Assembly (NCBI GenBank): GCA_035548815.1
Contig: DASZSF010000004.1
Span: 1-55,260, forward strand
DNA length: 55,260 bases
Direction of reading: 5' to 3'
Source of the DNA: Minisyncoccota bacterium
Lineage (GTDB): Bacteria; Patescibacteriota; Minisyncoccia; Phycocordibacterales; SBAW01
Positions within the stretch are counted from its first letter, which is position 1. Every line of letters starts with the position of its first letter. The position numbers were made by a program, and so were the translations under genes. The notes under the pieces were generated by a model. That model saw only the letters and a program-made list of their open reading frames with translations. It was not told the DNA's origin and searched no databases. Of the stretch, positions 9,304 through 53,700 are shown in pieces.

Positions 9304-11388
9304 ATGTCTCCTGACAGAAAGAAAGGCCCTTCGCGTAAGGCGACGGCTAAAAAACACATATCCGGCATCGTCCAAGTAACCCGCAAAGGCACGGGGTATA
9401 TGCGCTGGCCCCTCGACGAAGCTCGGGGTAAACCCGATAAGGAACGAGAGGATATCGAAATCTTCCCTGAAAAGTTGAGTGGCGCCTTAAATGGCGACAC
9501 TGTTGAGGTTGAGCTTCTATCGCTCTTCCCACGCCCCCGCGGACGCGTGGTCAAAATAGCTGAACGCTCAAAGACCCGCTTTGTCTGCACCCTTCGACAA
9601 GCTCAGGGTAAACCCGGGCAAACTCAGGGCAAGCGGTTGTTAGTTGCTGTGCCTGACGATATGCGCTTCCCTGTCCCTATAGAAGTCAAAACATCTGACA
9701 AAGAAGGAGAGAAAATTCTTGTAGAGCTCGAATCATTTGATGGGACAGTTGCAAAAGGAAAGGTGCTCCAGACCATTGGCGAAGCGGGACAGCATCGTGT
9801 TGAGATGAACGCAATTGTGCTCGAACATGGCTTCGCGACCGAGTTCCCTCCCGAGGTTTTGAAAGAAGCGCAGGATATAGAAAAGAATCATGCGAACATC
9901 ATTGCAGAGGAAGCGAAAAAGCGCGCTGACTTCCGCAACAAAACTACCTTCACTATCGACCCAGTTGATGCGAAAGACTACGACGACGCGCTTTCTGTTG
10001 AAAAACTAGACGACGATACGTATGAGATAGGTGTCCACATTGCCGACGCAACCTACTTCGTGCGGCCGGGCACTGCTCTTGATGACGAGGCGGTCAAACG
10101 CGGTACGTCAGTCTATTTGGTAGATGCAACTATCCCGATGCTCCCTCACGAACTTTCGGGCAATGTATGCAGTTTGAAAGCCGACGAAGACCGCCTGGCA
10201 TTTTCTGCAATATTTAAAATCACCAAGGACGGCGAAGTGCTCGACCGCCGGTTCGAAAAATCAATCATCCGCTCTAACAAACGCTTCACATACGAAGAGG
10301 CTCAAGAGATTTTAAACAAATTCGAAAAAACCAGAGCTGATGGAGGGGCTCCGCAGGGCGACGGCCCGAGGACTGAACAGATTTCTAGCAAGAAATCTGT
10401 GTACCCGGAATCAGTTGCTGGTTTTGAAGAAGAGTTACTTATACTGCGCGACTTGGCGCGAATTATGCGAAAAGAGCGCGAGAAAAAGGGCGCGATAGAT
10501 TTCGGCGACAACGAAGTAAAGTTCACGCTCGACGAAAATGGCATTCCTACAGGTGTTGTGCGCAAAGAGCGTATCGAAACAAACCTACTGATTGAAGAGT
10601 TTATGCTCTTGGCCAATCGCGAGGTTGCGAAGTTTGTTTCCAAACTTGCGGAAAAGAATCCAGAACATGGTCTTGTCTTTCTCTATCGTATCCATGACGA
10701 CCCGAAAGCCGACCGCATCGACGAACTCGCGACGTTCGTGCGTGCAATTGGCTACGACTTCGGCCACAACAAAAAGAAACCGTCGGCCCGCGATATCTCA
10801 AAACTTTTGAGCGACATCGAGGGTACTCCGGAAGAACACCTCATCCGCACGGCAACACTACGTTCGATGGCAAAGGCAATCTATTCAACAAAGAACATTG
10901 GCCACTTCGGATTGGCCTTCGACTACTACACGCACTTCACCTCCCCTATTCGCCGCTACCCCGACATGCTCGTGCACCGCATCTTGGCATCGCACTTAGA
11001 CGGCCATCCTATAACGCGCCGCGAATATGGCGTGCTTGAGCGTATGTGCATCACTGCATCTGAGCAAGAAGCAAAGGCTGTTTCGGCCGAACGCGGCTCC
11101 ATTCGCTACAAACAAGTTGAATATTTGAGCGCGCGCGTGGGCCAAGAATTTGATGCCGTCATTTCAGGTGTCACCGACTGGGGCATGTATGTGGAAGATA
11201 AAATAACAGCATCAGAAGGTCTCGTCCGTATAAAAAATTTGGGTACCGACTTTTTTGAACACCGCCCGAAAGAATATGCGATTGTTGGCCAGCGTACGAA
11301 AAAGAAATACGCGCTCGGGGACTCCGTACGCGTAAAATTGGTGGCGACCGACCTAGCAGCTAGGACGGCAGATTTCGAGCTGGTCTAG
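9304..11388 (+). CDS. rnr: Ribonuclease R (RNB family 3'-5' exoribonuclease)
   Basis: 694 aa. The RNB core contains TIDPVDAKDYDDALSVEK and HFGLAFDYYTHFTSPIRRYPDMLVHR, and a C-terminal S1 domain is present. It contains three in-frame repeat insertions, listed as separate repeat features. Confidence 0.9.
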   Translation: MSPDRKKGPSRKATAKKHISGIVQVTRKGTGYMRWPLDEARGKPDKEREDIEIFPEKLSGALNGDTVEVELLSLFPRPRGRVVKIAERSKTRFVCTLRQAQGKPGQTQGKRLLVAVPDDMRFPVPIEVKTSDKEGEKILVELESFDGTVAKGKVLQTIGEAGQHRVEMNAIVLEHGFATEFPPEVLKEAQDIEKNHANIIAEEAKKRADFRNKTTFTIDPVDAKDYDDALSVEKLDDDTYEIGVHIADATYFVRPGTALDDEAVKRGTSVYLVDATIPMLPHELSGNVCSLKADEDRLAFSAIFKITKDGEVLDRRFEKSIIRSNKRFTYEEAQEILNKFEKTRADGGAPQGDGPRTEQISSKKSVYPESVAGFEEELLILRDLARIMRKEREKKGAIDFGDNEVKFTLDENGIPTGVVRKERIETNLLIEEFMLLANREVAKFVSKLAEKNPEHGLVFLYRIHDDPKADRIDELATFVRAIGYDFGHNKKKPSARDISKLLSDIEGTPEEHLIRTATLRSMAKAIYSTKNIGHFGLAFDYYTHFTSPIRRYPDMLVHRILASHLDGHPITRREYGVLERMCITASEQEAKAVSAERGSIRYKQVEYLSARVGQEFDAVISGVTDWGMYVEDKITASEGLVRIKNLGTDFFEHRPKEYAIVGQRTKKKYALGDSVRVKLVATDLAARTADFELV
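9409..9435 (+). repeat. Dispersed repeat CCCTTCGAC..GCTCAGGGTAAA, in-frame copy 1 in rnr (encodes PLDEARGKP)
   Basis: cccctcgacgaagctcggggtaaaccc. Confidence 0.65.
9590..9632 (+). repeat. Dispersed repeat, in-frame copy 2 in rnr, with a partial tandem duplication (encodes TLRQAQGKPGQTQGKR)
   Basis: cccttcgacaagctcagggtaaaccc followed by gggcaaactcagggcaa. Confidence 0.65.
10339..10412 (+). repeat. ~73-nt palindromic element inserted in-frame in rnr (encodes DGGAPQGDGPRTEQISSKKSVYPE)
   Basis: About 90% identical to the reverse complement of 33338-33410 in pheT. It contains a perfect 9-bp stem, CAGATTTCT-AGCA-AGAAATCTG (10378-10399). Confidence 0.8.
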
Positions 11389-18714: not shown

Positions 18715-21700
18715 ATGGCTGCGAAATTCGTACACCTCCATGTCCATTCGCACTACTCTTTGCTTGCGGCGCTGCCCAAGCTCCCCGACCTTATAGATGA
18801 GGCAAAACGCCAAGGCCACGAAGCCATCGCGCTCACGGACTTAGGCAACCTCTACGGCGCTATCGAATTTATTAAGGAGTGCCACAAAGCCAATATAAAA
18901 CCGATCATCGGAGTCGATGTCGAGCTTGAAAGCCGCGCGCGGCTCGTGCTTTTGGCCGAAAACAACGCAGGATACGAAAATCTTCTTGCAATTGTTACAG
19001 ATTCATATTTTGCAGCAGACGATAGCAAACCAGTTGTAATACTCGACACACTTCGCAAACATCATGATGGTGTGATAGCGCTCGCTAAATCTTCAATACA
19101 AGATATTGCCTCGCTTAAAGAAATTTTTGGAGAAAAGAATCTCTATGTAGATGTCGCGATGCGCGAAATTTATTATGTGCAGCCCGAAGATCGCCGTGCG
19201 TGGGAGACGATGCGCAAAATCGCGCACAACGACAACGAAGAAAACAACGCATACCTTGAAGAAGAGGATTTCCACTTCCCTTCTGTTGCTGAAATGGAAG
19301 AGCAGTTCAGCGAAGCGCAGCTGGCGCAAACGATTGAGATCGCCGAGCGCTGCAACGTCGACATCACGATTGGGAAATTTATCTTCCCTGAATTCCCCCT
19401 GCCCGCAGGCAAAACGGGCGACGATGTCCTGCGCGAATTGTGCGAAACCGGTTTGCGCGCACGGGGCCTCGAAAATGATCAGGCCGTTCTCGACCGCCTC
19501 AACTATGAACTCGGCATTATCAAATTCAAAGGTTACTCAACCTACTTCCTCGTCGTGGAAGACCTCATCCGTTTTGCGCGCGAGAACAATATCTACACCA
19601 ACATCCGCGGCTCGGTCGCAGGCTCGATGACGACGTATCTTTTGCAGATCACAAAGATCGATCCGTTGGCATATAAGATACCGTTCGAACGCTTCCTGAA
19701 CCCCGAACGCCCATCCGCCCCCGATATCGATATGGACTTTGCCGACGACAGACGTGACGAGGTCATCGAATATGCGCGCCAGAAATACGGCGAAGCCCAC
19801 GTGGCGCAGATTGGCACCTTCGGTACGATGCTCGCCCGCGGCGTTGTCCGCGACGTCGCGCGTGCGCTTGGATACCCCTACGGTTTGGGCGATCGCATTG
19901 CAAAAGAAATTCCAATGGGGTCTCAAGGCTTCCCCATGACGCTTGAACGTGCACTGAACGAAAACCCAGAACTCGCAAAGATGTACAAAGCGGACGCAGA
20001 AGCGCGTGAAATAATCGACCTTGGCAAAAAGCTTGAAGGATGCGCACGCCACGTGGGGGTGCATGCGGCCGGAGTTGTCATTGCACCCCGCCCACTTGTC
20101 GAATACACGCCGCTCCAAAAAGACCCCAAGGGCGGCAAAACGATAACCCAGTACGACATGTACTCGGTCGGCGAAGACGGCGTGGGGCTCACGAAGTTTG
20201 ACTTCCTTGGCATCACCAACCTCACCATGCTTGCAAGCGCGGTCGAACTTATAGAAACAACGCGCGATAAAAAAATCGACATAGAAACTATTCCGCTCGA
20301 CGATGCAAAGACGTTCGAAATGCTCACTCGCGGCGAAACAGAAGCCGTGTTCCAGTTGAACGGCGGCGGCATGACAAAGGCGCTCAAAGAGCTCCGCCCG
20401 ACGAGCATTCACGACATCAACGCAATGGTGGCACTGTATCGTCCGGGGCCGATGCAATTTATTCCGCAGTACATCGAACGCAAACATAATCCGTCGCGCA
20501 TTAAATATTTCGACCCGGCGATGGAGCCTATTCTGAAACAAACATACGGCATCCTTGTGTACCAAGACGACCTGCTGATCATGGCCAACCAGCTCGCGGG
20601 TTACAGTTGGGGAGAAGTGGACAAATTCCGCAAAGCCGTTGGTAAAAAGATTCCGGAAGAGATGGCGAAGCAGAAAGAGAAATTCATCGAAGGCTGCATC
20701 TCCACAAGCGGCTGGCCGCGCGCAAAGGCAGAGCGTGTCTGGGAGTGGATCGAGCCGTTTGCTGCGTACGGTTTTAACAAAGCACATTCCGCAAGCTATG
20801 GCCGCGTTGCATATCAAACCGCATATTTGAAGGCAAACTACGGTGTTGAATATTTGTCTGCCGCTCTTACTGCCGATGCAGGAGATGTCGATAAAGTTGC
20901 AGTGCTTGTGCAGGAATGCAAGCGTATGGGCATCGACGTTCTTCCGCCTGATATCAACCACAGCTTCGGCGACTTTACTGCAATACTTGGCAGCAACAAC
21001 AAAGAGCGTAGCAGGAAGGCTGCAAGTTTGGCCGGAGACGCACAGGATGACGCGATCCGTTTTGGTCTCTATTCAATAAAAAATTTCGGCGAGGGTGTTG
21101 CTGATGAGATTATTAAAGAACGCAAAGAGAACGGCCCGTTCACAACGCTGTCTGATTTTCTCACACGCACTGCAGGCGCATCACTCAACAAAAAGAGTTT
21201 GGAGTCGCTCATCCAATGCGGCGCGCTCGACTCGCTTGGCGAGAGAGGCCAGATGCTTGCGAACTTAGAGTTGATGCTGCAATTTCAAAAAGATGCCGGA
21301 GCTGAGCAATCGCAGGACTCGCTTTTTGCAGGGCTTGGAAACGCAAGTGGCGAGATACAACTCGCTCCTGCGGCACCCGCCCCGCAACACGAGCGCTTGG
21401 CATGGGAAAAAGAATTGCTCGGACTCTATGTCTCCGGGCATCCGCTCGACCAGCATAAAGAAAAACTCTCGAAGCGCCCGATGACTATTGGCCAGATGAA
21501 GCAAAAAATAATGCCTGGCATGACCGCTGTTGCTGCCGGGATGATACAAGACATGCGAGTCATTTTAACCAAAGGCGGCGACCAGATGGCGTTCATAAAA
21601 ATCGCTGACTACGACGGCACTATCGAGGCCGTTGTCTTCCCAAAAAACTTCACCGAACATAAAGATATCTTGAAGCCCGACACCTGCATTGCACTCAAAG

Positions 21701-21762
21701 GGCGTCTTTCCAACAGAAATGGCGAACTTTCGATGGTTGCCGAAGCGCTGAAAGCTTTATAG
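18715..21762 (+). CDS. dnaE: DNA polymerase III alpha subunit
   Basis: 1015 aa with a PHP N-terminus (HLHVHSHYSLL), the pol III alpha core and a C-terminal OB fold. Confidence 0.9.
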   Translation: MAAKFVHLHVHSHYSLLAALPKLPDLIDEAKRQGHEAIALTDLGNLYGAIEFIKECHKANIKPIIGVDVELESRARLVLLAENNAGYENLLAIVTDSYFAADDSKPVVILDTLRKHHDGVIALAKSSIQDIASLKEIFGEKNLYVDVAMREIYYVQPEDRRAWETMRKIAHNDNEENNAYLEEEDFHFPSVAEMEEQFSEAQLAQTIEIAERCNVDITIGKFIFPEFPLPAGKTGDDVLRELCETGLRARGLENDQAVLDRLNYELGIIKFKGYSTYFLVVEDLIRFARENNIYTNIRGSVAGSMTTYLLQITKIDPLAYKIPFERFLNPERPSAPDIDMDFADDRRDEVIEYARQKYGEAHVAQIGTFGTMLARGVVRDVARALGYPYGLGDRIAKEIPMGSQGFPMTLERALNENPELAKMYKADAEAREIIDLGKKLEGCARHVGVHAAGVVIAPRPLVEYTPLQKDPKGGKTITQYDMYSVGEDGVGLTKFDFLGITNLTMLASAVELIETTRDKKIDIETIPLDDAKTFEMLTRGETEAVFQLNGGGMTKALKELRPTSIHDINAMVALYRPGPMQFIPQYIERKHNPSRIKYFDPAMEPILKQTYGILVYQDDLLIMANQLAGYSWGEVDKFRKAVGKKIPEEMAKQKEKFIEGCISTSGWPRAKAERVWEWIEPFAAYGFNKAHSASYGRVAYQTAYLKANYGVEYLSAALTADAGDVDKVAVLVQECKRMGIDVLPPDINHSFGDFTAILGSNNKERSRKAASLAGDAQDDAIRFGLYSIKNFGEGVADEIIKERKENGPFTTLSDFLTRTAGASLNKKSLESLIQCGALDSLGERGQMLANLELMLQFQKDAGAEQSQDSLFAGLGNASGEIQLAPAAPAPQHERLAWEKELLGLYVSGHPLDQHKEKLSKRPMTIGQMKQKIMPGMTAVAAGMIQDMRVILTKGGDQMAFIKIADYDGTIEAVVFPKNFTEHKDILKPDTCIALKGRLSNRNGELSMVAEALKAL

Positions 21763-26004: not shown

Positions 26005-27141
26005 TTACGCCTGGGTGCGCAATTCGATCTGCGAAAGGATGAAGGGGTCGATAGGATCAACGACTGCCTTGGTTTCCCTATGGAGGTCTGAGTGGCTGGT
26101 ATGAGCAACGATATGGTCGGCAGACGTGTGGACATGAGTGTTGTGTGCATTTGTGTGGGTCTCGGAAGCTACTTGTGCATGAGACGCGTCGCCGAAGAGG
26201 AAGGTTACGAATTTGTTCTGGATACGCTTGACGACAATGAGGTATGCCGCAAAGAGGCACCAGAGGATGAGGAAGCCCCAGTAGGCAATAGTTCCCCATA
26301 CTCCAAGATCAAGACCGGTGTACGGCAACGACGAGAGTGTAACGTACGGGTTGTTTCCAACTGCGACCGGACCACCAATGATGACCGGGTACGAAGCCGG
26401 AGTGTTCGTGTAGTAACCCGAACCGCCGTAGATGACAGAGCCTGAACCCTGGGTCGTAGTCTGCGTAATAGTCTTGTTGCAATTATTCGTGCCATTGCAT
26501 GCATTGACGTTGGTCGTGCCAGTCGTCCCGTACTTCGGATATGTCGCGGTCGGATAATACGTCGAGCCGTAGTAGCCAGATGTGCCGTAGTAGCTCGAGC
26601 CGTATCCATAGGTACCGTAGTAGTACGGAGTGCCGTAGTTGTAGGAACCGTAGGTAACAGGAGTTGCTACATATCCGCCAGTTGAAGTGTAGACAGGAGT
26701 GGTAGAAACTGGAGAATATGTTGCGTAGTCAGTGGTGCCGTAGCTCGGAGAATAATTCGCGTAATCCATAGGGCTGTAATTAGCGTAGTCGTATGAAGGC
26801 GAGTAGTTTGCATAATCCTGGCTTGCAGGAGAGTAGTTTGCGTAGTCTTGAGTCGTAGGAGAATAGTTCGCAAAGTCCTGCGTTGAACCTACCGGGGAAT
26901 AGTTGGCAAAGTCAGAAGCCGTAGTTGCTGAATAGTATGCGTAATCTGCTGAACCAGCTGACGGAGAATAGTTTGCATAATCAAAACTACCACCACTTGG
27001 AGAGTAATTTGCATAATCTCCATCATCATCTGCATGTGCAGCAAATGGAGCTACGAAGGCAGCTGCAAAGACCACAAAGACAAGAAGTCCTGCGACAACT
27101 GTGGTATGTTTCTGTGCGATTGACGTGGTTTGCATAAGCAT
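26005..27141 (-). CDS. Tyr-rich repetitive surface protein ((D/F)YANYSP repeats) with an LPYTG sorting signal and a long His-rich tail after the membrane anchor
   Basis: A signal peptide is followed by about 10 DYANYSP-type repeats and a Y/G/T/S-rich region. LPYTGLDLG (26314-26328), a TM helix and KR come next, then about 70 further residues. Confidence 0.7.
   Translation of the reverse strand: MLMQTTSIAQKHTTVVAGLLVFVVFAAAFVAPFAAHADDDGDYANYSPSGGSFDYANYSPSAGSADYAYYSATTASDFANYSPVGSTQDFANYSPTTQDYANYSPASQDYANYSPSYDYANYSPMDYANYSPSYGTTDYATYSPVSTTPVYTSTGGYVATPVTYGSYNYGTPYYYGTYGYGSSYYGTSGYYGSTYYPTATYPKYGTTGTTNVNACNGTNNCNKTITQTTTQGSGSVIYGGSGYYTNTPASYPVIIGGPVAVGNNPYVTLSSLPYTGLDLGVWGTIAYWGFLILWCLFAAYLIVVKRIQNKFVTFLFGDASHAQVASETHTNAHNTHVHTSADHIVAHTSHSDLHRETKAVVDPIDPFILSQIELRTQA
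26710..27018 (-). repeat. Tandem degenerate repeats encoding (D/F)YANYSP units
   Basis: aa 42-144 read DYANYSPSGGSF DYANYSPSAGSA DYAYYS... DFANYSP... DYANYSP... DYATYSP. Confidence 0.8.
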
Positions 27142-31802: not shown

Positions 31803-33683
31803 TTAGCGCACCTCAAAGCCTTTCTCCACCAAAATACGGCTTATTTCCTGCATAATTTGGTTGACTTCTGCTTCAGTGAGTGTTCTTTCAAACGATTGGA
31901 AAATAAGGCGGTAACCGAGCGATGTTTTCTCGCCTTTTTGAAAGCGGTCGAAGAGCGAAATGCGGACGCAGAGCTCCCCTGCCTTTTCTTCAATCTCCTT
32001 CATGACCACATCTTCATCAGTGCCAGCCGGCGTCCAAAACGCAACATCGCGGACAATGTAGGGGTAGCGTGAGAATGTTTCGTATCGTTCAGCATCAGAA
32101 AGCGGATGGGCGTCGTATGATTCTGCAGCAATTGGTTCGAGCACGCGTTCAGCAGCAACTCCTTTCGCATCTACAGTTGCAATATGCGTCTCCTCTGTGC
32201 CGCCCACCCACACCACGCCAATCTCAAACAGCTTCACTTCTTTCAAGCCAAGGAGATCTTTGTTGGGTTGATTTTTTTGCCACGCATCCAAGAGGCCTGT
32301 CTTCAAGTCGCTGCGCAAGTGCGGTTTGACTCCATCAACTTTATTCAACACAGTGCGTTCGCCGCTTTCAGCAAAGACGCTCGTAAATACTTCTGAATAT
32401 CCTTGTGCAATGAGTTCTTCGCGTGCTTTTTCTGCTGCATAAAACCCCGCATTGATTTCAGACTTCTTCGGAAATGGCGGGAGCGGCGTTGCAGTGATTT
32501 TATCGTAGCCAATGATACGCCCAACTTCTTCAATCAAATCTTCTGCGATTACCAAATCGAGGCGCTCAAATGGCGGCTGGACTTCAAATACTCCTGATTC
32601 TTCTTTGTATGAAAATCCGAGACGCTGAAATACATCAGCAACATCAGCACCAGTGAGTTGAACGCCGAGTACGCGGTTTATCTGTTCGAGCGTTACCGAC
32701 ACATATGTTTGTTCCTGCTTTTCTGGATACACGTCAACAGTACCTACAACTTCGCCGCCCGCTACAGCAAGAATAGTCTCAACTACTTGGCGCATTCCGT
32801 AGAACGCAAGCTCTGGAGAAATGACTTGCTCAAAACGCGCAGATGCGTCAGTGCGAAGTTTAAGAGCAGATGCGGTTTTGCGGACAGACACACCGTCAAA
32901 ATTCGCTGACTCTATGATGATGTCTGTTGTGGTATCAGAAATCCCAGCCGGCATGCCTCCTTTGACGCCTGCAATGCCTATCGCTTCGTCTTTGTCAGCG
33001 TCAGCAATAACAAGCATGCTCTCGTTCAGCGTGTACTCTTTGCCATCAAGGGCGAGCATCTTCTCACCCACCTTGGCTGGGCGAACTTCGATTGCATATG
33101 CGCCATCCTTGTGTACGAGCTTTCCTGCATCAAATGCGTGCAGCGGCTGCCCTAAGTTGAACATGACCATGTTGGTCGCATCGACGATATTGTTGATAGA
33201 TTTTTGTCCTATCGCTTCAAGACTATTATTAAGCCAATCTGGACTTGGACCAACTTTCACGCCCTTCATATGAGTCGCGATGTAGCGTTTGCAGAGAGGG
33301 GTCTTAATCTCGACTGAGACTCCAGCATTAGCTGCCGGATTCGGGTACGCAGATTCCTTGCTAGGAATCTGCTCAGTCCTCGGGCCGTCGCCCTGTGGAG
33401 CCCCTCCCTCGGCACTAATGCTTTCGTTTCCTCTAGCAAACGGGTCGTGCGGCACGTTCATCGGCATTTTTAAGATCGCCGAGAGTTCTTTTGCTATGCC
33501 GCGATGGCACAAACAATCGTGACCGCGGTTAGGCGTCACTTTTACATCAAGAATAGAATCATCGCCATGTGCTTCAACGCCGTCTATTTCAAACGCATGG
33601 AATGTCAGCGCATCAGAAACCTCGCCCACAGGCGGAAGTTTTTTATCAAAATAATTATTAAGCCAGTTATAGGAGACTTTCAT
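31803..33683 (-). CDS. pheT: Phenylalanine--tRNA ligase beta subunit
   Basis: The ATG at 33683 gives MKVSYNWLNNYF... It lies 4 nt after the pheS stop. The track ORF is extended upstream. It contains the in-frame palindromic element. Confidence 0.88.
   Translation of the reverse strand: MKVSYNWLNNYFDKKLPPVGEVSDALTFHAFEIDGVEAHGDDSILDVKVTPNRGHDCLCHRGIAKELSAILKMPMNVPHDPFARGNESISAEGGAPQGDGPRTEQIPSKESAYPNPAANAGVSVEIKTPLCKRYIATHMKGVKVGPSPDWLNNSLEAIGQKSINNIVDATNMVMFNLGQPLHAFDAGKLVHKDGAYAIEVRPAKVGEKMLALDGKEYTLNESMLVIADADKDEAIGIAGVKGGMPAGISDTTTDIIIESANFDGVSVRKTASALKLRTDASARFEQVISPELAFYGMRQVVETILAVAGGEVVGTVDVYPEKQEQTYVSVTLEQINRVLGVQLTGADVADVFQRLGFSYKEESGVFEVQPPFERLDLVIAEDLIEEVGRIIGYDKITATPLPPFPKKSEINAGFYAAEKAREELIAQGYSEVFTSVFAESGERTVLNKVDGVKPHLRSDLKTGLLDAWQKNQPNKDLLGLKEVKLFEIGVVWVGGTEETHIATVDAKGVAAERVLEPIAAESYDAHPLSDAERYETFSRYPYIVRDVAFWTPAGTDEDVVMKEIEEKAGELCVRISLFDRFQKGEKTSLGYRLIFQSFERTLTEAEVNQIMQEISRILVEKGFEVR
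33338..33410 (-). repeat. Second copy of the ~73-nt palindromic element, in-frame in pheT (encodes EGGAPQGDGPRTEQIPSKESAYPN)
   Basis: The reverse complement aligns with 10339-10412, with about 6 substitutions and 1 indel. The stem is CAGATTCCT-AGCA-AGGAATCTG (33350-33371). Confidence 0.8.
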
Positions 33684-33687
33684 AGAA

Positions 33688-34425
33688 TTAGAACTGATTG
33701 ATGAAGCGGAGATCAGCCGAATGCATGTGACGCACGTCATCTATCGCCCAGCGCAAAAGCGCCAAACGATCGAGCCCCATGCCGAATGCAAAGCCGCGAT
33801 ACTTCTTTGGGTCAACGCCTGCGTTCTTCAGCACATTCGGGTGCACCATGCCCGCGCCCATCATCTCAATCCATCGGCCGCGCAATTTTTCTGGCACGTT
33901 CTCGCCATCGATACGTGCATCTACTTCGACCCCAGGTTCAACGAATGGGAAGAAGCTCGGGCGGAATCGCACCTCCACGTTTGCTCCGCGAAAGAGCTCC
34001 TTGTAAAACGCGTCAATAGTTCCTTTCAAATGCGCGAGCGTAATATCTTCGCCCACAGCCAACCCTTCAAGCTGGAAGAATTCTGCTTCATGTGTCATGT
34101 CGGTTGCTTCATTTCGAAACACTTTGCCTGGCACGATAATCCGATACGGCGGTTCAATGCCCTTTTTCATCTGCTCTTCCATGTAGCGCACCTGCACCGG
34201 ACTTGTCTGCGTACGGAGCACCATCTCTTTTTCGTCCTTCATAAAGAAGGTATCTTGCATATCGCGCGCCGGATGATCTTTCGGGACGTTCAAGGCATCA
34301 AAGTTGTACCACTCGCTTTCAACGAGCGGACCTGAAGCAAACGTGAAGCCCATCTTTGAGAAAATATCGTTGGCTTCGCGTATGAGCGAGCTTATCGGAT
34401 GTATATGTCCGCGGTCAGAATCCAT
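33688..34425 (-). CDS. pheS: Phenylalanine--tRNA ligase alpha subunit, short form lacking the N-terminal coiled-coil
   Basis: 245 aa with NVPKDHPARDMQDTFF, FRNEATDMTHEAEFFQLEG and GMGLDRLALL. Confidence 0.9.
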   Translation of the reverse strand: MDSDRGHIHPISSLIREANDIFSKMGFTFASGPLVESEWYNFDALNVPKDHPARDMQDTFFMKDEKEMVLRTQTSPVQVRYMEEQMKKGIEPPYRIIVPGKVFRNEATDMTHEAEFFQLEGLAVGEDITLAHLKGTIDAFYKELFRGANVEVRFRPSFFPFVEPGVEVDARIDGENVPEKLRGRWIEMMGAGMVHPNVLKNAGVDPKKYRGFAFGMGLDRLALLRWAIDDVRHMHSADLRFINQF

Positions 34426-36394: not shown

Positions 36395-36470
36395 TGGAGC
36401 CGCCTCCCAGATTCGAACTGGGGACCTTCTCTTTACAAAAGAGTTGCTCTACCAACTGAGCTAAGGCGGC
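36395..36470 (-). tRNA. trnT: tRNA-Thr (anticodon UGU), CCA encoded
   Basis: The reverse complement folds as a cloverleaf: GCCGCCT-TA-GCTC-AGTTGGTA-GAGC-A-ACTCT-TTTGTAA-AGAGA-AGGTC-CCCAG-TTCGAAT-CTGGG-AGGCGGC-T-CCA. Confidence 0.9.
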
Positions 36471-44710: not shown

Positions 44711-45228
44711 CTATTGAGGGATGATGGTAAGGCACCCGTTAGGGTCGCCACTTTGCGCTTCACCCCAACCCCACGTCGCTACACATGAAGGATGGCAGCT
44801 AGCGGGCGTCGGGTTTTCGAACAATGCATACACTACGGCGTATTTGCTTGTTGCACTTCCACACGCCGTATCAGCTGTAAAAGTTATGTAACGGTAGGTG
44901 CAACCGCCAAGGTAGTTTTCTTTAGGGACGCCTGAGGAAAATTCGCCGTCCGTCACAAGCGCGGAAAGCCAGCCGCCGCTGTTTGCCGTGTTCCCCCCTT
45001 CCCACACCCCCAGCATCCGCCACCGCCCGCAGTGGACGGAGGGTATGTGCCGTGATTGCTCGCATAGACCTCGAGCGCGGTTTGTATGGAGTGCATGTCA
45101 GCAAACCGCCTAGCATCACGAGCTTTACTACGAGCGCTCGACAGCGACACAAGTACGATCGACGACAAAATGCCGATGATGGCGATGACGACGAGAAGTT
45201 CTATCAACGTAAAGCCGCGGGGTTTCAT
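44711..45228 (-). pseudogene. Type IV pilin-like gene interrupted by a frameshift near a homopolymer run
   Basis: [23 protein letters not shown]... (ATG 45228) stops at 44953. The rest of a pilin-sized body continues in another frame (44711..45016). One extra G in the G5 run (plus-strand C5, 45007-45011) would restore ...[26 protein letters not shown]... Confidence 0.65.
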
Positions 45229-45239
45229 ATATATACCGG

Positions 45240-45764
45240 TCACCAGCCCGCCATGCCGGACGTATACACAGCAATGGCCCATGGCGCGTTGCCGTCCACA
45301 GTTGTATCGCTTGAGCCGCCATCGCGGCGCGGGTCCCACACCGCCTTGCTCATCGCCGCAGGATTTTCCGGCAGATGCGCGACAACTTTGTAGTCGGTGA
45401 GCGTGGAGCCGACCACGTAGCGCGTTCCCCATCCGCCGCAGTCGCTGCTCCCATTGTCACCCGTCGAATTAGGCGCCGTGGGTATGTTTGGCATATAAGG
45501 CGCGAGGGCCACCTGCAAAGACGCATAGTGGGTCGGGTCGGATTCGCATATTGTTACCGATATGTTGGGATACTGCCCGTTATGGTCCGACGCATACAAC
45601 TCAAGCGCATTCGCTATTTCTCGTATCTGCGCAAGCCGCGCCGCATCCCGCGCCTTGCTGCGGGCGGAATTGAGCGACACGAGCACCACGGACGCGAGCA
45701 CGCCGATGATGGCGATGACGACGAGAAGTTCTATCAACGTAAAGCCGCGTGTCTTGCTATGCAT
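45240..45764 (-). CDS. Type IV pilin-like protein (prepilin N-terminal cleavage/methylation signal)
   Basis: [41 protein letters not shown]. Confidence 0.85.
45643..45736 (-). repeat. Pilin 5' module, 94 nt, identical to 46108-46201
   Basis: gcatcccgcgccttgctgcgggcggaattgagcgacacgagcaccacggacgcgagcacgccgatgatggcgatgacgacgagaagttctatca. Confidence 0.85.
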
Positions 45765-45767
45765 GTT

Positions 45768-46226
45768 CTAGTAGCAATATGTGCGGGTGGTGCCGGTGCG
45801 CAGCTTGCATGTGCCACTCCACACGCCCCAATAATAGGGGCTCGACGCGCAGTCGTTTTCCTGCGAGATCTGAATGCAGTAGTCGGTGCCGTTGGAAGTA
45901 TAATAGTACCATTCTTCGGGAGAGGCCGCGTTTATGGGATCTTGGGGCACAGTCGGAATATACGTCGGCGACAACCCCGGTATCCACGTAGATCCCGAAC
46001 CGCTATAGGCCCACGAACCGGCGCCGGTATTTGGATACGATCCGTTGTGATCGGATGCGTAGAGTTCAAGCGCGGTCACAAGGCTGTGCATGTCGGAAAG
46101 GCGCCGCGCATCCCGCGCCTTGCTGCGGGCGGAATTGAGCGACACGAGCACCACGGACGCGAGCACGCCGATGATGGCGATGACGACGAGAAGTTCTATC
46201 AGTGTGAAAGCGCGCGGCGTTTGCAT
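45768..46226 (-). CDS. Type IV pilin-like protein
   Basis: The ATG at 46226 gives [45 protein letters not shown]. Confidence 0.85.
   Translation of the reverse strand: MQTPRAFTLIELLVVIAIIGVLASVVLVSLNSARSKARDARRLSDMHSLVTALELYASDHNGSYPNTGAGSWAYSGSGSTWIPGLSPTYIPTVPQDPINAASPEEWYYYTSNGTDYCIQISQENDCASSPYYWGVWSGTCKLRTGTTRTYCY
46108..46201 (-). repeat. Pilin 5' module, copy 2
   Basis: Identical to 45643-45736. Identity with the 48464-48565 copy extends further upstream (tgtcggaaaggcgccgc). Confidence 0.85.
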
Positions 46227-46233
46227 TGTAGTG

Positions 46234-46680
46234 TTAGAAATTGCATGTGGGCGGACTTCCCCAGTCACCCACACCAACGTTTACCCCTGTTCTGCAATAT
46301 CCGCTCAGAACGTTTACGTAAACAAGTAAGCTGTAGCTGCTAGGACTTATGCCAGTCGTAATACCCGCCGAGTAATAACGATCACTATCTGAAATAAGAA
46401 CGCTTGGCATACTCGGCATATACTTTGGCACCAGTTTACCCACAAGAGTTGAATCGCTTAGCAACACGTCACCATTGCTGCTGCCGTTCGACGTTGGATA
46501 CCCCCCATTATCATTATTATATAGCTCCATGGCGGTTTTGAGGGATTTTACATCGGATATACGAGCTGCATCGAGTGCCTTTGTGCGAGCACTCGAAAGC
46601 GAAACCAAAACAATTGAGGCCAATACGCCGATAATGGCGATGACGACAAGCAGTTCGATGAGTGTAAACCCCCGCTTCAT
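46234..46680 (-). CDS. Type IV pilin-like protein
   Basis: The ATG at 46680 gives [38 protein letters not shown]. Confidence 0.85.
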   Translation of the reverse strand: MKRGFTLIELLVVIAIIGVLASIVLVSLSSARTKALDAARISDVKSLKTAMELYNNDNGGYPTSNGSSNGDVLLSDSTLVGKLVPKYMPSMPSVLISDSDRYYSAGITTGISPSSYSLLVYVNVLSGYCRTGVNVGVGDWGSPPTCNF

Positions 46681-46685
46681 GATAT

Positions 46686-47216
46686 TTAGCGCGGCACTGT
46701 CGCGGACGGAGTCATCATCGGTTCCATGACCGGCGCAGACGTCTGTTTGGAAGTTGGCCACACAAGCCAGGCGGAAAATGCTATGCAGGCTGCGGCAAGC
46801 GCGAGCATGACGACGTTCGCCTGCGCGGCGGTTTTGACGATCTTCATGCGTATAAGCAGGCCTATGATTCCCTTTTCCGCGGGCGCGGAAACATCCGCCC
46901 GGAATTGCTGCGATGCGGGGGCAGAGGCGGCGGATACGTTCTGATACGGATTCTGCGCTGCGGCTTCCTGCCGTCGCTTTTCCATCTCCGCCATAAAGTC
47001 AGCGGTCGGAGCCGCCGCAGCGGGCGTCGTCGGCATATGCACCTGCACAGGAGCAGGGACCGATGCAGAGGGCGCCGCAGGCCGTTCAAGTTCGGCGAAC
47101 GCATCCGAAATATCCCCCGCCGCCCAGCCCGCGGACGCGAGGGATTGCACGATCTGCTCTTTCGCGAACTGTGCCTCGTGCTCTCGTATATATGCGATTA
47201 GTTGCGGGTTTGCCAT
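46686..47216 (-). CDS. Hypothetical membrane protein (177 aa) inside the pilin block
   Basis: The ATG at 47216 gives MANPQLIAYIREHEAQFAKEQ... A Pro/Ala-rich linker is followed by a C-terminal TM helix, VVMLALAAACIAFSAWLVW. Confidence 0.55.
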   Translation of the reverse strand: MANPQLIAYIREHEAQFAKEQIVQSLASAGWAAGDISDAFAELERPAAPSASVPAPVQVHMPTTPAAAAPTADFMAEMEKRRQEAAAQNPYQNVSAASAPASQQFRADVSAPAEKGIIGLLIRMKIVKTAAQANVVMLALAAACIAFSAWLVWPTSKQTSAPVMEPMMTPSATVPR

Positions 47217-47229
47217 ACGGTATATAGTA

Positions 47230-48102
47230 TCACTCGTGCTCGCCCGCGACCTTGCCCCGCATGGTGCGCAGCTCATGCAGGAACTTCTTCGCGTCCGCGG
47301 GGCTGGGAGATTTGCCATGCCAGCGATAATCAAACTCAATCTCTTGTATACCTTTGCCTGGAATGGTGTGCGCAATAATCACGACCGGGCGCTCGTAAAT
47401 GGCGTGCGCCTGGTCGCACGCATCAGTAAATTCACGGATATTGTGGCCATCAACTTCGAGCACATGCCAATTGAACGCCTCGTATTTTTGCCGCAGATGT
47501 TCAAGGGGCATCACGTCTTCTGTCATGCCGTTTATTTGGATGTTGTTGCGGTCGACAATTGCCGTGAGATTCGAGAGCTTGTTGTTGGCGGCAAACATCG
47601 CCGCTTCCCACATATTTCCCGCATCATGTTCGCCATCGGACATCGCGCAAAATACGCGGTTCTTTTTGCCGTCCATGCGCAGCCCGTAGGCAATGCCCGC
47701 AGCTTGCGATAGGCCCGAACCCAGCGGCCCCGACGTTGTTTCAAGCCCGGGGAGACGCAGCCGTTCGGGATGCCCTTGGAGGCGGCTGCCGAATTTTCGC
47801 AGCGTCAAACATTCTTCAACCGGAAAATATCCCGCATGCGCCATCGCGGCGTAGCGCACCGGCACGATATGGCCGTTTGAAAGTATGAGCCTGTCGCGGC
47901 CGTCCCATTCAGGATGCTTTGGGTCATGGGCCAAAATATCAAAATACAGCGCCGCGAATATGTCAGCCATGCCCAAAGGACCTGCCGTGTGCCCGGAACC
48001 TGCCGCAACAAGCATCTCAATAATCGTCTCGCGGATGGCCTCCGCTTTTTTCTCGAGCGTTTGAATTTTTTGCTGGGTTCGGATCATCGCTGGATATAAC
48101 AT
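47230..48102 (-). CDS. Transketolase, N-terminal (TPP-binding) subunit
   Basis: GSGHTAGPLGMADI, TSGPLGSGL and MSDGEHDAGNMWEA are present. The start is ATG 48102 or ATG 48087. Confidence 0.88.
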   Translation of the reverse strand: MLYPAMIRTQQKIQTLEKKAEAIRETIIEMLVAAGSGHTAGPLGMADIFAALYFDILAHDPKHPEWDGRDRLILSNGHIVPVRYAAMAHAGYFPVEECLTLRKFGSRLQGHPERLRLPGLETTSGPLGSGLSQAAGIAYGLRMDGKKNRVFCAMSDGEHDAGNMWEAAMFAANNKLSNLTAIVDRNNIQINGMTEDVMPLEHLRQKYEAFNWHVLEVDGHNIREFTDACDQAHAIYERPVVIIAHTIPGKGIQEIEFDYRWHGKSPSPADAKKFLHELRTMRGKVAGEHE

Positions 48103-48109
48103 ACCACCC

Positions 48110-48592
48110 TTAATTGCCCAACCAGTAATAGTTAGGCCCGGCGGTCGTGCATGAGGAAGGCGCCGGAGAATGCACCGGGGAAAGCTGGCTTTCAAGATTT
48201 ACCGCAAGGACGTATCCCTGATTGTTGTTGATCGCGCAATAATGATAGAGATGGCAATCGGTCTGGCTGTAGCAATTTCCCAGGTCAACGTTCAGCGGGT
48301 CGGGTGGAAACGTCGAGATATAGCTTGTCGGCATCACCTGCGTCCAACAGCCCCAGCTGCTCCACATGTCTCCGCCGCCGCCGTTGCAGGCGGCATTTGG
48401 GTTCGGATACGCGCCATGGTCTACGTAGTACAGCTCGAGCGCAGCCTGCATGTTGTGTATGTCGGAAAGGCGCCGCGCATCCCGCGCCTTGCTGCGGGCG
48501 GAATTGAGCGACACGAGCACTACGGACGCGAGCACGCCGATGATGGCGATGACGACGAGAAGTTCGATGAGCGTAAAGCCGCGGGGTTTCAT
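48110..48592 (-). CDS. Type IV pilin-like protein
   Basis: [44 protein letters not shown]. Its start overlaps the rpe stop by 4 nt (ATGA). Confidence 0.85.
   Translation of the reverse strand: MKPRGFTLIELLVVIAIIGVLASVVLVSLNSARSKARDARRLSDIHNMQAALELYYVDHGAYPNPNAACNGGGGDMWSSWGCWTQVMPTSYISTFPPDPLNVDLGNCYSQTDCHLYHYCAINNNQGYVLAVNLESQLSPVHSPAPSSCTTAGPNYYWLGN
48477..48565 (-). repeat. Pilin 5' module, copy 3 (1 mismatch)
   Basis: Same sequence as 45643-45731, with a single C-to-T difference. Confidence 0.8.
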
Positions 48593-49224
48593 TGATTTGC
48601 TTCTTTCACAAGCGCTTCGTATGCTGCGCGGGGGTTGTCTGCATTGAGTATGGCCGACCCCGCCACCAGGCGCGACGCGCCCACATCGACCAGCGCCCTG
48701 ACGTGCCTGGTGCGTAGGCCACCGTCAACTTGAATAATATATGCGGGATGGAGCGCATGAATATGCTGCACAAGTGCGAGGGCCCGTTCGTCAAATGTCT
48801 GTCCTTGGCTTCCTTCGTGCGCAATGCCCATCACCTGCACATAATCATACAACCCCTCGAACGCGTCGAGCGCGCGTGGTGTTTCGTCAACTGCAAGCGC
48901 TATGCCAACTTCTGTTGCAAAGCTCCCTCCGCGTAAATGCTGCAACAGCAATAGAGCCTCATGAGCGCCTTTGTCACGCGCATGCACAATGATGCGCGAT
49001 GCGCCAAGTTCAATACAGTGCTCGACGTGCTGCTCGGGGTGCGGGAGCATCAGGTCAAACTCAAAATCAAATTCGTCCCACAACGGTAACGACTCTTCGT
49101 TCTTTAAAAAATCTGAACCGACCATATCTATTTGTACCGTAGCGCTCGCACCACGCAATCTCTCGAGCGCCACGCGAAGGTCATCGACCGAATGTTCTAA
49201 AACTGCAGGAATAATGTCGATCAT
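48589..49224 (-). CDS. rpe: Ribulose-phosphate 3-epimerase-like TIM-barrel protein (divergent)
   Basis: 211 aa in a pentose-phosphate context, with IIPAVL...VQIDMVGSDF...VDGG. The family assignment is moderately confident. Confidence 0.6.
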   Translation of the reverse strand: MIDIIPAVLEHSVDDLRVALERLRGASATVQIDMVGSDFLKNEESLPLWDEFDFEFDLMLPHPEQHVEHCIELGASRIIVHARDKGAHEALLLLQHLRGGSFATEVGIALAVDETPRALDAFEGLYDYVQVMGIAHEGSQGQTFDERALALVQHIHALHPAYIIQVDGGLRTRHVRALVDVGASRLVAGSAILNADNPRAAYEALVKEANQ

Positions 49225-50724: not shown

Positions 50725-53700
50725 TTATTCGCTGATAATGACTGTCCGTGTTGCCGTCCCTGTATTCCCTGCCTCATCGATTGCGCTGTAGAGGATCATG
50801 TGCGAACCTGCCGTTGATGTATCGAGCTGAAACTCTGCAGGAGACGTGCTTGTTGCTCCATCAAGCGACATTCTGTAGCCAATATTTGGACTGCCCGCGT
50901 CTACTATAGTAACGCCCATGTCACTATAGACATCGCCCACATGGAGTTCTGCCGGATCATCACCCTGTACCGTCAGCGCAGGCGGAGTTGTATCGGTTGA
51001 AGACGCGTTGCCAGAGTTTGGAGGCGTCGAAGCAGAACTCTCTCCCGCGGCGCCTACACCACTGGAAGAGTTCTGCGCAGATGCCGAAGAAGCGCCTGAA
51101 AGCAGCTGGTCAAGTTGACTCCGAGTGATGCAGGTCTCGCCCGAGTCGTCGCTGATGCAGAGCTGGTCAGTATGAATTTCGTGCGCGAACACCTTGTTGA
51201 ACACACCGACAGTCGCATATACGGCGGTGTTGAACAGCTTGACCACTGTGCTGCCGATGCCGCCTATAGCGCCGCGCAAAGCGCCCGAGAACGTAGCGGC
51301 CGTCGAAGAGGCGGCGAGCGCCGCGGCGCTCGTGGTTGCGTTGAGTGCATCGCCTATCGCCTCGATCGGTGTGCCCTGCTGGGGGTCGACGTAGACCATG
51401 ATCTGGTCGTCGCCCGCGGCGCCCGCGGCCGTCGAAGAGGCGGTGCCGTAGTCCACCAGTGCGCGGCCGACGCTCGTGTCGAGCGGATCGGCCTTCATGC
51501 CGACGCCCGGCACCGACGACTGCGTGATGCGGTCGCCGACCTTGATGGGGCCGTTTTCGAGCGAAACGCGCATCGGCACGCGACCTGCCATGGAAAGGAG
51601 GATGTGCGACTGGTGCCACTGCGTCTTAAGGTCGGTCGCGACATCCGACTGGATGTCGTTACCGGTATAGGACGGGTAGTTCGACACGGCGCCGATGAGC
51701 ATGTCGTCGTGCGCGCGGCCGCACAGACCGTAGGTGTCGGGCGAGGTGCCCTGCATGCAGATCAGCGAACCGTCGGGGTAGTCGGCCGCTGCAGTGCCGG
51801 GAACGGGGTCCACATATTCAGCGTAGTCGGCGCCCTGCAAGCGCGAGCCAGCGAAATTGGTGTTGATGGCTGAACCGGAGATGGTGGTGCTCGTATCCGA
51901 ATAGCCGTCGCCTACAATGTAGTCCGTCGTACCATTCATGTCGACGATAGCGACTGCCGTCGCAATGGTGACGTTCCCTTGGGAGCCCGACTGCTCGACT
52001 ATATTTCCAAGCGCAGAGCCGTTTTTTGCAATAGCCGCGTAGCACGAGCCGGTAACACCGCAATAGACGTTGAGTCGGATGAGGTATTTGCCCGGCACCG
52101 TCGGCGTGAAGCGGCCGGTCCCCGTGTCGAAGTTATTGTTGGTGTCGAAGATTTCATGCGACCAGGTGAGCTGGGTGTAGGTAGAAAGTGATACGCTCTG
52201 GTCCGTGCCGTTCTTGTCCACACTGAACGCGGGCACTGCGCCCGTCGCATAGAGGCACGTGCCCGCCACGCGGAAGCAGCTGCCGGACGAGACGTTGATG
52301 TCGCCGCTTACATCGAGCTTGTACTGCGGGTTGGTGTTGCCAATACCGACGTTGCCATTCCCCACAAGCGTCATCACAGTTGCCTGTGTCGTTGCTGAGG
52401 CATTGCTGACTAGGAAAAACATCTTGTTGTTTGCGAGCGTACTGCCATCAAAGTTGTTCGCAATTCCACTGCGGTAATTCCCCGACGCGTCATATGTAAA
52501 CAGAAGATCGCTTACGCCTGCGTTATTCGCCGAGAGAACATTAAGTTTCGCTTGCGGAGCGGTGACGCCTATGCCGACGTTGCCGCCTGTCGCCTGCAAC
52601 AGCACGTAGCCAGTGGTGCCATTGCCCACGCCCGCGCCACCCGCGCCACCCGAGATGCTTACCGAGCCGCCGTTGCCGCCGGCGGTGAATAAGCCAGTTG
52701 CACCTGGGCCGCCTGCCAGCACGATGCCGCTGCCGTTCGCCCCATTGCCCGTCATCGTGCCGCCCTGGATATACGCACTGATAGCGGTGTTAGTCGCGCC
52801 CAAGACCGACAGGGTCGCGCTGGGCGAAGTGGAGCCGATGCCGACGTTGCCGCTTGAGGTGATGTGGAGGTGGTCCGCCGTGATGCCTGAGCCGAGAATG
52901 ACGGGGCCACCGTTAGTGGTTATAGCGAGCGCCGCGTTCGAGGTGCTCTGCCAAATGGTGTTGCTCGTGTCGCCACCGTTAAGTCTAAGTGTGCTGCCCG
53001 CATAGAGATAGCCACTCGTGGTAACTGCTGCGCCGTGCTGCACGTAGAGTGCGCCATTGCCGAGCGAAACGTCGCCGCTCGTGTCGCTTATCGTGAGCGG
53101 CCGCAGCGAATTCCAGCCGCCGTACTGGTCGCCCGACGCGGTAAGGAGGAAGTAAAAGTTGGAGCCATCGTTGTAGAGCATGTCGCCGTAATTGCCATTC
53201 ACCGCGCGGAAGGCGACGGCGTTGGTTGACTGCACCTCGGCGCTCGCGCGCAGCGACCCGCCGAGATCTATCGAGCCCCATGCGCTGCCTGTCCAGTATC
53301 CGATCGTCGCACGGTCGGTCGCCGTCTCGGGCTTGAACGTCAAGAATTTCGTCCCCGCCGTATTCTGTACCGTGAGTGTATCGCTGCCGTTGCTCGCGGC
53401 CTTGACCGAAAGCACGCCCTTGTTCACCGACAGATTCGTCGCAGTGCTGCCGTCGCCCACGTACACGCTGCCGCCGTTGTTGTAGTTGATGTACGTGGCG
53501 ATCGACGATTGATCGGGATTGATATGGACGATGCCTCCGCCGGAATATAGGCGCGTCGTGTTGGAGCCGTCCACGCTAAGGACGCTGACTGCGGTGCCGC
53601 CCGAATTCTTTATCTGGTACGCCGTGTTGTTGGCAAGCACGAGGTTGCCCTGGAGCATGTTGGTGTCGTTGCTCTGCTGCAAGAGAGAGCCGTAATAGCT

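Follow-up and report, generated by a model that had tools for sequence, protein, structure and literature searches.

We describe here a short structured element that occurs twice in a 55,260-nucleotide (nt) stretch of DNA from a Minisyncoccota bacterium (assembly GCA_035548815.1, contig DASZSF010000004.1; this whole stretch is hereafter "the window"), inside the genes for ribonuclease R (rnr) and for the beta chain of phenylalanyl-tRNA synthetase (pheT). The conclusion that it represents a previously undescribed family of structured elements is well supported: one strand folds into a three-way junction with constant loops and covarying stems, the closest relatives of both host proteins lack the insert, and some 45 distinct copies were gathered from assemblies of the candidate phyla radiation (CPR, Patescibacteria). 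As to its nature, we favour, with moderate confidence, a family of non-autonomous mobile elements of the kind of the Rickettsia palindromic elements (RPE) or of the intragenic repetitive extragenic palindromic (REP) sequences; no counterpart was found in Rfam 15 or in the papers searched.

Two copies of the element in the window

A reading of this DNA from its sequence alone had reported a palindromic segment of about 73 nt at 10339-10412 (+) in rnr, and its reverse-complemented recurrence at 33338-33410 (-) in pheT. Both were located, and they align without gaps, with identity at 66/72 positions of the core and 77/99 positions of the whole element. The segment is real, but the 73 nt are only the core: a 15-bp closing stem flanks it, which brings the element to 99 nt. 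The host genes and the two copies are the following.

9304..11388, + strand: host gene 1, ribonuclease R (rnr), with RNB, CSD2 and S1 domains
10327..10425, + strand: copy 1, whole element, 99 nt, in frame in rnr, peptide KTRADGGAPQGDGPRTEQISSKKSVYPESVAGF
31803..33740, - strand: host gene 2, phenylalanyl-tRNA synthetase beta chain (pheT), with B3_4, B5 and FDX-ACB domains
33324..33422, - strand: copy 2, whole element, 99 nt, in frame in pheT, peptide SISAEGGAPQGDGPRTEQIPSKESAYPNPAANA

A search of the window for the core 35-mer, with up to 3 mismatches allowed, returns these two copies only, where 0 matches are expected (100 shuffles), and they also form the longest inverted pair detected by a repeat finder (85 nt, 86% identity). 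The covariance model, run with its filters off on the whole 55-kb window, gives exactly 2 matches and no third copy. Copy 1 is matched at 10312-10431 (114.4 bits, E 4e-27) and copy 2 at 33318-33437 (-) (107.9 bits); their RNA fold z-scores are -3.56 and -3.42, respectively.

Each copy begins on a codon boundary, spans 33 codons and is sense to its host gene. The proposal that both copies are read in one element frame holds inside both open reading frames (ORFs), the common peptide being (D/E)GGAPQGDGPRTEQI(S/P)SK(K/E)S(V/A)YP; the element has 3-4 open frames out of six. The two copies are on opposite DNA strands and there is no GC-skew switch between them, so that orientation tracks transcription and not replication; the idea that orientation results from single-stranded lagging-strand template DNA is thus unsupported in the window.

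A three-way junction with constant loops and variable stems

When the 91 nt around each window copy are folded, the architecture is the same in both: a closing stem, whose sequence differs between the rnr and pheT copies, then a 3-bp GGG/CCC stem, and a three-way junction bearing two hairpins, P2 and P3 (minimum free energy -39 to -40 kcal/mol, z about -3.5). For the family as a whole, the fold of one strand consists of a closing stem P1 of 15-25 bp, a 3-bp stem P1a and the three-way junction with its two hairpins: P2, in which 3 bp and 4 bp flank the internal loop GCA/GA and which ends in the tetraloop GACG, and P3, with 10 bp and the loop AGNA. "Palindromic" is therefore a partial description, since the architecture is that of a junction with a closing stem rather than of a simple palindrome. 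Likewise, the perfect 9-bp stem-loop of the sequence-only reading exists, but it has 10 bp and an AGCA loop. The compensatory pair that was said to distinguish the copies lies in the same hairpin, where T-A is replaced by C-G (ACAGATTTCT/AGAAATCTGT vs GCAGATTCCT/AGGAATCTGC). The parts of each copy are located as follows.

10327..10341, + strand: copy 1, P1 5' arm AAAACCAGAGCTGAT, which pairs with 10410-10425 in the consensus structure
10345..10406, + strand: copy 1, three-way-junction core, in which P1a GGG/CCC (10345-10347 with 10404-10406) encloses P2 and P3
10350..10372, + strand: copy 1, P2 hairpin TCC-GCA-GGGC-GACG-GCCC-GA-GGA, tetraloop GACG at 10360-10363
10373..10376, + strand: copy 1, P2/P3 junction CTGA, kept in nearly all canonical copies
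10377..10400, + strand: copy 1, P3 hairpin ACAGATTTCT-AGCA-AGAAATCTGT, loop at 10387-10390
10410..10425, + strand: copy 1, P1 3' arm ATCAGTTGCTGGTTTT, with one bulged G, from the fold and the alignment
33408..33422, - strand: copy 2, P1 5' arm AGCATTAGTGCCGAG, which pairs with 33324-33339
33377..33399, - strand: copy 2, P2 hairpin TCC-ACA-GGGC-GACG-GCCC-GA-GGA, tetraloop at 33386-33389
33349..33372, - strand: copy 2, P3 hairpin GCAGATTCCT-AGCA-AGGAATCTGC, loop at 33359-33362
33324..33339, - strand: copy 2, P1 3' arm TCCGGCAGCTAATGCT, from the fold and the alignment

RNAalifold predicts 39 base pairs from 33 unique copies, with double changes in 29 of them. The statistics given below were computed on a model-based alignment of 45 distinct sequences, and it is important to note that fitting sequences to a model favours structure; they are therefore shown next to the values obtained after shuffling the columns or sliding the 3' partners. 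An ungapped MAFFT alignment shows the same pattern.

Cells paired: observed 95.3%; shuffled columns 70%; 3' partners slid 38-58%
Pairs with changes on both sides: observed 38/39; shuffled columns about 27; 3' partners slid 20-26
Covariation score: observed 0.64; shuffled columns 0.19; 3' partners slid 0.08-0.14

The unpaired GCA, GACG, GA and AGNA are constant, while the stems vary by compensatory change. In P1, 6 base pairs of copy 1 depart from the consensus of the remaining Adlerbacteria copies, and each of the 6 is compensated; P1a is GAG/CUC in other copies; and all 10 pairs of P3 covary across the family around the conserved AGNA loop. P2 is invariant among the copies that were found with a pattern in which it was fixed. 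Beyond these copies it does covary: its inner pairs read GCGC/GCGC in L053 and L054, and GGCC/GGCC or GGCU/AGCC in divergent ("type II") copies, and its outer pairs read CUC/GAG, UGC/GCA or UUC/GAA (the last in L058). The flip from GGGC/GCCC to GCGC/GCGC changes the peptide from QGDGPR to QRDGAR, so that pairing is preserved while two residues are altered at once.

In the alignment of the 45 copies, G-U/U-G cells outnumber A-C/C-A cells by 77 to 17, and the core-sense strand has the more stable fold in 43/45 copies (mean of -47.7 kcal/mol over the 45); the fold thus matters on one particular strand. Sequence comparison indicates that what is selected is this fold, on that specific strand, and not the peptide. 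The sequence-only reading had already leaned towards selection on nucleic-acid structure, which is now borne out by the many double substitutions, the compensatory changes that affect two residues, and the existence of copies in both orientations and between genes.

The element is an insertion in rnr and pheT

We compared the RNase R of the window with 29 orthologues. The closest of them (P0002, 83% identity) and most of the others lack the insert: their loop reads ..ILNN-ESG-EYITELLILRDLA.., where the window protein has 38 residues. A variant copy is present at the very same loop in an RNase R of 73% identity (P0012, encoded by L053). Similarly, the PheT proteins P0132 (82%) and P0133 (80%) are devoid of the element, and variants are found in P0134 (L058; 74%) and P0150 (63%). 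At the DNA level, the sequences on either side of the insert can be aligned between empty and filled sites as far as the loop, with a net gain of 90 nt in rnr and 81 nt in pheT, and the empty rnr and pheT loci give no match with the covariance model. Since the closest orthologues of both proteins (80-83% identical) do without it, the element is an insertion, as had been surmised; far from being fixed across orthologues, the segment is missing from most of them.

The suggestion that the insertions occupy permissive surface positions agrees with the predicted structure of RNase R and the domain layout of PheT. In RNase R, the insert is placed between two helices of the RNB domain, in a low-confidence coil (residues 347-370 have an AlphaFold pLDDT, or predicted local distance difference test score, below 50) of a model that is mediocre overall (mean pLDDT 71.6). 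In PheT, it is in the linker ahead of the B3_4 domain, where the window protein is about 31 residues longer than the enzyme from Thermus thermophilus. The insert is predicted to be disordered.

Other observations concern the same proteins. The DnaE of the window (18715-21762, +) is devoid of the element and a related DnaE fragment (P0129) has an in-frame variant in its HHH_6 region, which is a further case of presence and absence. The same RNase R loop is filled with other inserts of 15-30 residues in P0003, P0016, P0017 and P0028, whose peptides are dissimilar to that of the element. In other CPR genomes, the same PheT loop contains an unrelated in-frame insert that forms a hairpin (L057 1235-1360, from the metagenome-assembled genome (MAG) JBAXFJ01; proteins P0177 and P0180; peptide SSDLSIRSLEPKLGELQEGSPEKS; minimum free energy about -43 kcal/mol), which suggests that there are several families of coding palindromes in CPR bacteria.

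Copies in other genomes

A scan for the exact 20-nt core in one genome per species (185,579 species) gave 17 loci. Two of the 17 are chance matches in high-GC genomes; the 15 real ones are all in Patescibacteria MAGs (15 genomes of 185,579), the record titles of which bear the labels Adlerbacteria, Nomurabacteria, Paceibacterota, Parcubacteria, Saccharibacteria and Peregrinibacteria. A metagenome scan in which the P2 tetraloop was left free and the remaining core positions were fixed gave 34 loci, 27 of them real, with GACG, GTCG or GCCG as the tetraloop. Variants with a flipped P2 base pair were added by profile searches and contig look-ups, and L011, L014, L019, L020, L022, L026, L028, L039, L044 and P0122 were discarded as chance matches. 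One of the copies (P0001, L001) is recorded as a 41-residue "protein" of a JGI contig; it is in fact an intergenic copy, with another closing stem and a covarying P3. A search of 5.8 billion proteins with the peptide returned one match and missed known carriers; the word index has poor sensitivity for a motif of 24 residues, so that this single match is no evidence of rarity.

The family has so far been found only in CPR/Patescibacteria, judging from these sequence searches. The impression of a CPR-like genome given by the window is in line with this, all genuine matches being in Patescibacteria MAGs and the closest relatives of the window proteins being labelled Candidatus Adlerbacteria or Paceibacterota. 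It is also clear that the element is not confined to the two copies first noticed, since many copies with conserved stems exist. On the other hand, the sample was ascertained by means of the exact core, and only 15 species representatives carry that core, so that conservation across CPR cannot be claimed; the idea of a "universal CPR RNA" was rejected as stated for this reason.

Most genomes have a single match with the exact core. The Adlerbacteria MAG ELA416 has copies at three unrelated loci (L003, and L013 twice), and L053, which contains the variant rnr copy, comes from the same metagenome. The Adlerbacteria copies share a P1 consensus and a GUACCC junction.

Genomic settings of the copies

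Within the family, in-frame copies are found in tsaD (in both orientations), parB, recG, tig, rseP and dnaE, and other copies are in intergenic spacers. In Adlerbacteria, the in-frame sense copies are those in ParB, RecG, trigger factor, RseP, DnaE and a helix-turn-helix protein, and one further copy is upstream of frr. The seven in-gene Adlerbacteria copies retrieved with the DNA pattern all use one sense frame, which is the most hydrophilic one, and the peptide GGAPQGDGPRTEQ recurs in one frame in several proteins.

In other CPR assemblies, a copy with the canonical core occupies a single tsaD site, where it is in frame and flanked by GGPxISKLAEE and LPRPM. The tsaD copies are mostly antisense (L002, L004, L005, L009, L010 and others), with a peptide that reads ..FAQSSGRRPAES.., and they are sense in L007, L037, L050 and L054. 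Intergenic copies are in either orientation, between housekeeping genes; one of them is at the same place in two related contigs (L042 813-932 and L043 497-615), antisense to both of its neighbours, a cupin gene and a gene for an AddA/UvrD-type helicase-nuclease.

The divergent type II relative has another core sequence and the same loops (GCA/GACG/GA/AGCA), and often adjoins a canonical (type I) copy in opposite orientation. Such oppositely oriented pairs of related elements are seen in L004, L015, L017 and L033; in tsaD the arrangement is type II sense followed by type I antisense. In L004 (905-2060), the tsaD frame is broken at the type II element, with a stop at 1405 and another frame that opens at 1410; a pseudogene, a split gene and an assembly error are all possible explanations. 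The type II elements are located as follows.

L004 1393-1501: type II element
L015 4072-4192: type II element
L017 1518-1638: type II element
L033 163-283: type II element
L016 3452-3574: type II element
L027 6670-6795: type II element

A mobile element or a functional RNA?

The presence/absence polymorphism, the dispersal to unrelated loci, the lineage-specific subfamilies, the paired copies and the patchy distribution fit a non-autonomous mobile element of the RPE or intragenic REP kind. In the mechanism that we propose, the folded single-stranded form of one strand would be recognised by a trans-acting enzyme and copied to new sites. Recognition would rest on the conserved loops as a module, and pairing would be all that is required of the stems. 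Recognition of the folded single strand by an enzyme is inferred from the combination of conserved loops, free stems and strand bias. Only harmless insertions would survive, namely those between genes and those in protein linkers or surface loops; in a gene, the tolerated orientation and frame would add 33 hydrophilic, disordered residues. Such a filter on orientation and frame would explain why all in-gene Adlerbacteria copies use one frame.

Several observations weigh against mobility. The copy number is very low (2 in 55 kb; 3, plus one likely fourth, in ELA416, the best-sampled genome). There is almost no variation in the core, and conservation reaches 81% even in the variable arms, vs 72% in the flanking tsaD coding sequence, which is not expected of a selfish insertion in decay; in addition, the conservation of the arms correlates only weakly with host divergence. 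The single tsaD site is filled in about 17 distinct assemblies, in both orientations. No clean target-site duplication emerges from the comparison of empty and filled sites, in which no clean boundary can be defined because the loop sequence itself has diverged. The ends of the Adlerbacteria copies have only a weak GAAG-like direct 4-mer (GAAG/GAAG in L012, GTAG/GTAG in L013, imperfect in other copies). No transposase, reverse transcriptase or REP-associated tyrosine transposase (RAYT) was detected in the 10 ORFs that flank intergenic copies; the Pfam scan covered these and 10 selected ORFs of the window, but not the ORFs beside in-gene copies nor most window ORFs. No copy was found in 2.9 million viral contigs with a pattern that covers both core variants. 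Last, if the rnr insertion that is shared with L053 is ancestral, the six compensated pairs of P1 mean that the hairpin has been maintained in place.

These observations lend themselves to another explanation, which we regard as possible but rather unlikely: the element may be a functional structured RNA nested in genes, either a small RNA gene or a signal for protein binding or processing. It would then be under purifying selection for a host function, and its copies would either be RNA genes paralogous to one another or serve housekeeping mRNAs as a post-transcriptional "tag". The nearly invariant loops and core, the covarying stems, the excess of G-U over A-C (77 vs 17), the conservation above that of the adjacent tsaD sequence, the single tsaD site filled in many assemblies and the six compensated pairs in P1 of the rnr copy all are as expected of such an RNA. 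So is the fact that 7/7 pattern-found in-gene Adlerbacteria copies are sense to the mRNA, orientation tracking transcription, and the junction CUGA...G(U)A could, from its sequence, form tandem sheared G-A pairs. Against it, the closest rnr and pheT relatives manage without the element; the orientation of the tsaD and intergenic copies differs between genomes, sense in some and antisense in others; very few CPR species representatives have the exact core; and no Rfam family matches. Nor was a conserved promoter or terminator context seen, although no search aimed at it was made.

A related suggestion, which we consider doubtful, is that the near-invariant junction (GCA/GACG/GA/CUGA/AGNA, with free stems) defines a new class of functional RNA: either a self-propagating module that is catalytic or recruits a protein, or a host RNA gene nested in frame in essential genes such as tsaD. 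If this were true, the class would be a gene within a gene, of a kind undescribed in bacteria.

It is improbable that the element is an invertible intragenic segment (an intragenic inverton), the P1 arms of which would let the centre flip and thereby generate two protein isoforms. The arms are indeed inverted repeats of 15-25 bp, and the same tsaD site is occupied in either orientation in different assemblies, in frame in both cases. However, mixed orientation within one assembly was not seen, no invertase was identified, all in-gene Adlerbacteria copies have a single orientation, and inversion leaves unexplained both the dispersal to new genes and the conserved, asymmetric core.

Removal at the RNA level, by an intron-like or self-cleaving element such that the protein never contains the insert, appears very improbable to us. 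A compact three-way junction with conserved unpaired nucleotides is an architecture typical of small ribozymes. However, every in-gene copy is in frame and free of stops, and the window copies are exactly 33 codons long, which a spliced element does not need to be; moreover, many copies are antisense to the host mRNA and no ribozyme or intron of Rfam is matched even at E values up to 10.

Finally, we give next to no credence to a protein-level module, that is, a conserved peptide linker spread by recombination with an incidental fold: the recurrence of GGAPQGDGPRTEQ in one frame speaks for it, but it is already contradicted by the orientation data, since opposite-orientation copies encode a different peptide (..FAQSSGRRPAES..), and intergenic copies, the two-residue change that accompanies the P2 flip and the predicted disorder of the insert also go against it.

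Relation to known families

At the gathering threshold, the search of the window and 7 loci against Rfam detected only tRNAs; at E values up to 10, nothing was found for window positions 10250-10500, and only chance-level matches for L004 1200-2000. The literature, searched by topic and by sequence string, gave no description of the sequence, nor of such an element in CPR. On inspection, the junction lacks the hammerhead core CUGANGA/GAAA, and K-turn and anticodon-loop interpretations of the junction and loops were not upheld; a K-junction is kept as speculation only.

The closest parallel in behaviour is with RPE-1 and its relatives (Ogata et al. 2000, 2002, cited in PMC3733652 and PMC2229807). 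These palindromic repeats of about 100-150 nt (99-120 nt here) fold as long hairpins, occur both between genes and, in frame, within housekeeping genes, where their translation adds surface segments to the protein, and have no known transposase of their own; their host is also a bacterium with a reduced genome. The resemblance noted by the sequence-only reading is thus apt as regards the fold and the in-frame insertion, but not the copy number, which is tens to hundreds per genome for RPEs and 2-4 here. The phylum is unrelated, and the likeness is one of behaviour only. What sets the element apart from RPEs is a core that is asymmetric, barely variable and built as a three-way junction, together with a clear preference for one strand and the repeated occupation, in both orientations, of one gene site (in tsaD).

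Intragenic REP/REPIN sequences (Di Nocera et al. 2013) are GTAG- and CGTC-tagged palindromes (PMC3733652). They too are hairpin repeats that may be found inside genes of replication and repair, to which they add 20-80 residues; oppositely oriented pairs are frequent (REP dimers, PMC3733652), they are thought to act single-stranded, and the CGTC class has no dedicated transposase. In contrast, REPs are simple stem-loops of 20-40 nt with a terminal tetranucleotide tag and a variable loop, whereas the element described here is a 99-nt three-way junction whose centre is conserved. Its GACG, the reverse complement of CGTC, is in the loop of P2 and not at an end, and the GAAG/GTAG-like 4-mers at its ends are too weak and inconsistent to be terminal tags. 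The scanned ORFs include no RAYT gene (IS200/IS605-type tyrosine transposase), and the copy number is low.

Genic MITEs (transposable elements of the miniature inverted-repeat type) of bacteria, such as the QMITEs of Coxiella (PMC5896051; reviewed in PMC2229807 and PMC10969869), are short, non-autonomous and have inverted ends; some of them occupy ORFs in frame, have an RNA fold and are polymorphic for presence or absence. Terminal inverted repeats are found here as the P1 arms of 15-25 bp. However, these arms vary by compensatory change, whereas MITE ends are conserved transposase-binding sites, and neither a clean target-site duplication nor a parent insertion sequence was identified at the loci examined. 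The three-way-junction RNAs of Rfam (hammerhead, other self-cleaving ribozymes, purine-type riboswitches) are similar in size, topology and conserved unpaired junction nucleotides; unlike riboswitches, the element is found inside ORFs and in both orientations. We therefore assign it to no named family, the copy number, terminal tags, target-site duplication and partner transposase that would be diagnostic being absent or open.

Other features of the window

Four other repeat or structural features were noted in the window.

26794-26988: three head-to-tail 30-nt units, with a fourth 105 nt beyond, inside ORF 26005-27141 (- strand), which has no Pfam match
36398-36470, - strand: single tRNA gene, the only Rfam match in the window at the gathering threshold
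45035-48594, - strand: 4-5 small paralogous ORFs with a conserved 5' end (repeat families D1/D2); ORF 45240-45764 has a prepilin N-terminal methylation motif, so that the cluster looks pilin-like
50725-55182, - strand: 1484-residue ORF with internal repeats spaced about 225-270 nt and larger; Pfam matches are a phage long-tail-fibre trimerisation domain (Gp34_trimer), C1q and a bacterial surface Ig-like domain

Implications

The best-known palindromic "protein-coding repeats" that are inserted in frame are those of Rickettsia; intragenic REPs are known from a number of further phyla, most of them Gram-negative (PMC3733652). The presence in CPR bacteria of an unrelated family that behaves alike would make the colonisation of essential genes in this manner a recurrent event in small genomes. 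The family has a defined fold with unusually strong comparative support (conserved loops, a three-way junction and a strand preference), which makes it a tractable case in which to ask what machinery moves such elements; to our knowledge, that machinery has not been identified even for RPEs. In practice, the element inflates and distorts the alignments of marker proteins (RNase R, PheT, TsaD, DnaE) that are used in CPR phylogenomics, and the covariance model can flag its copies.

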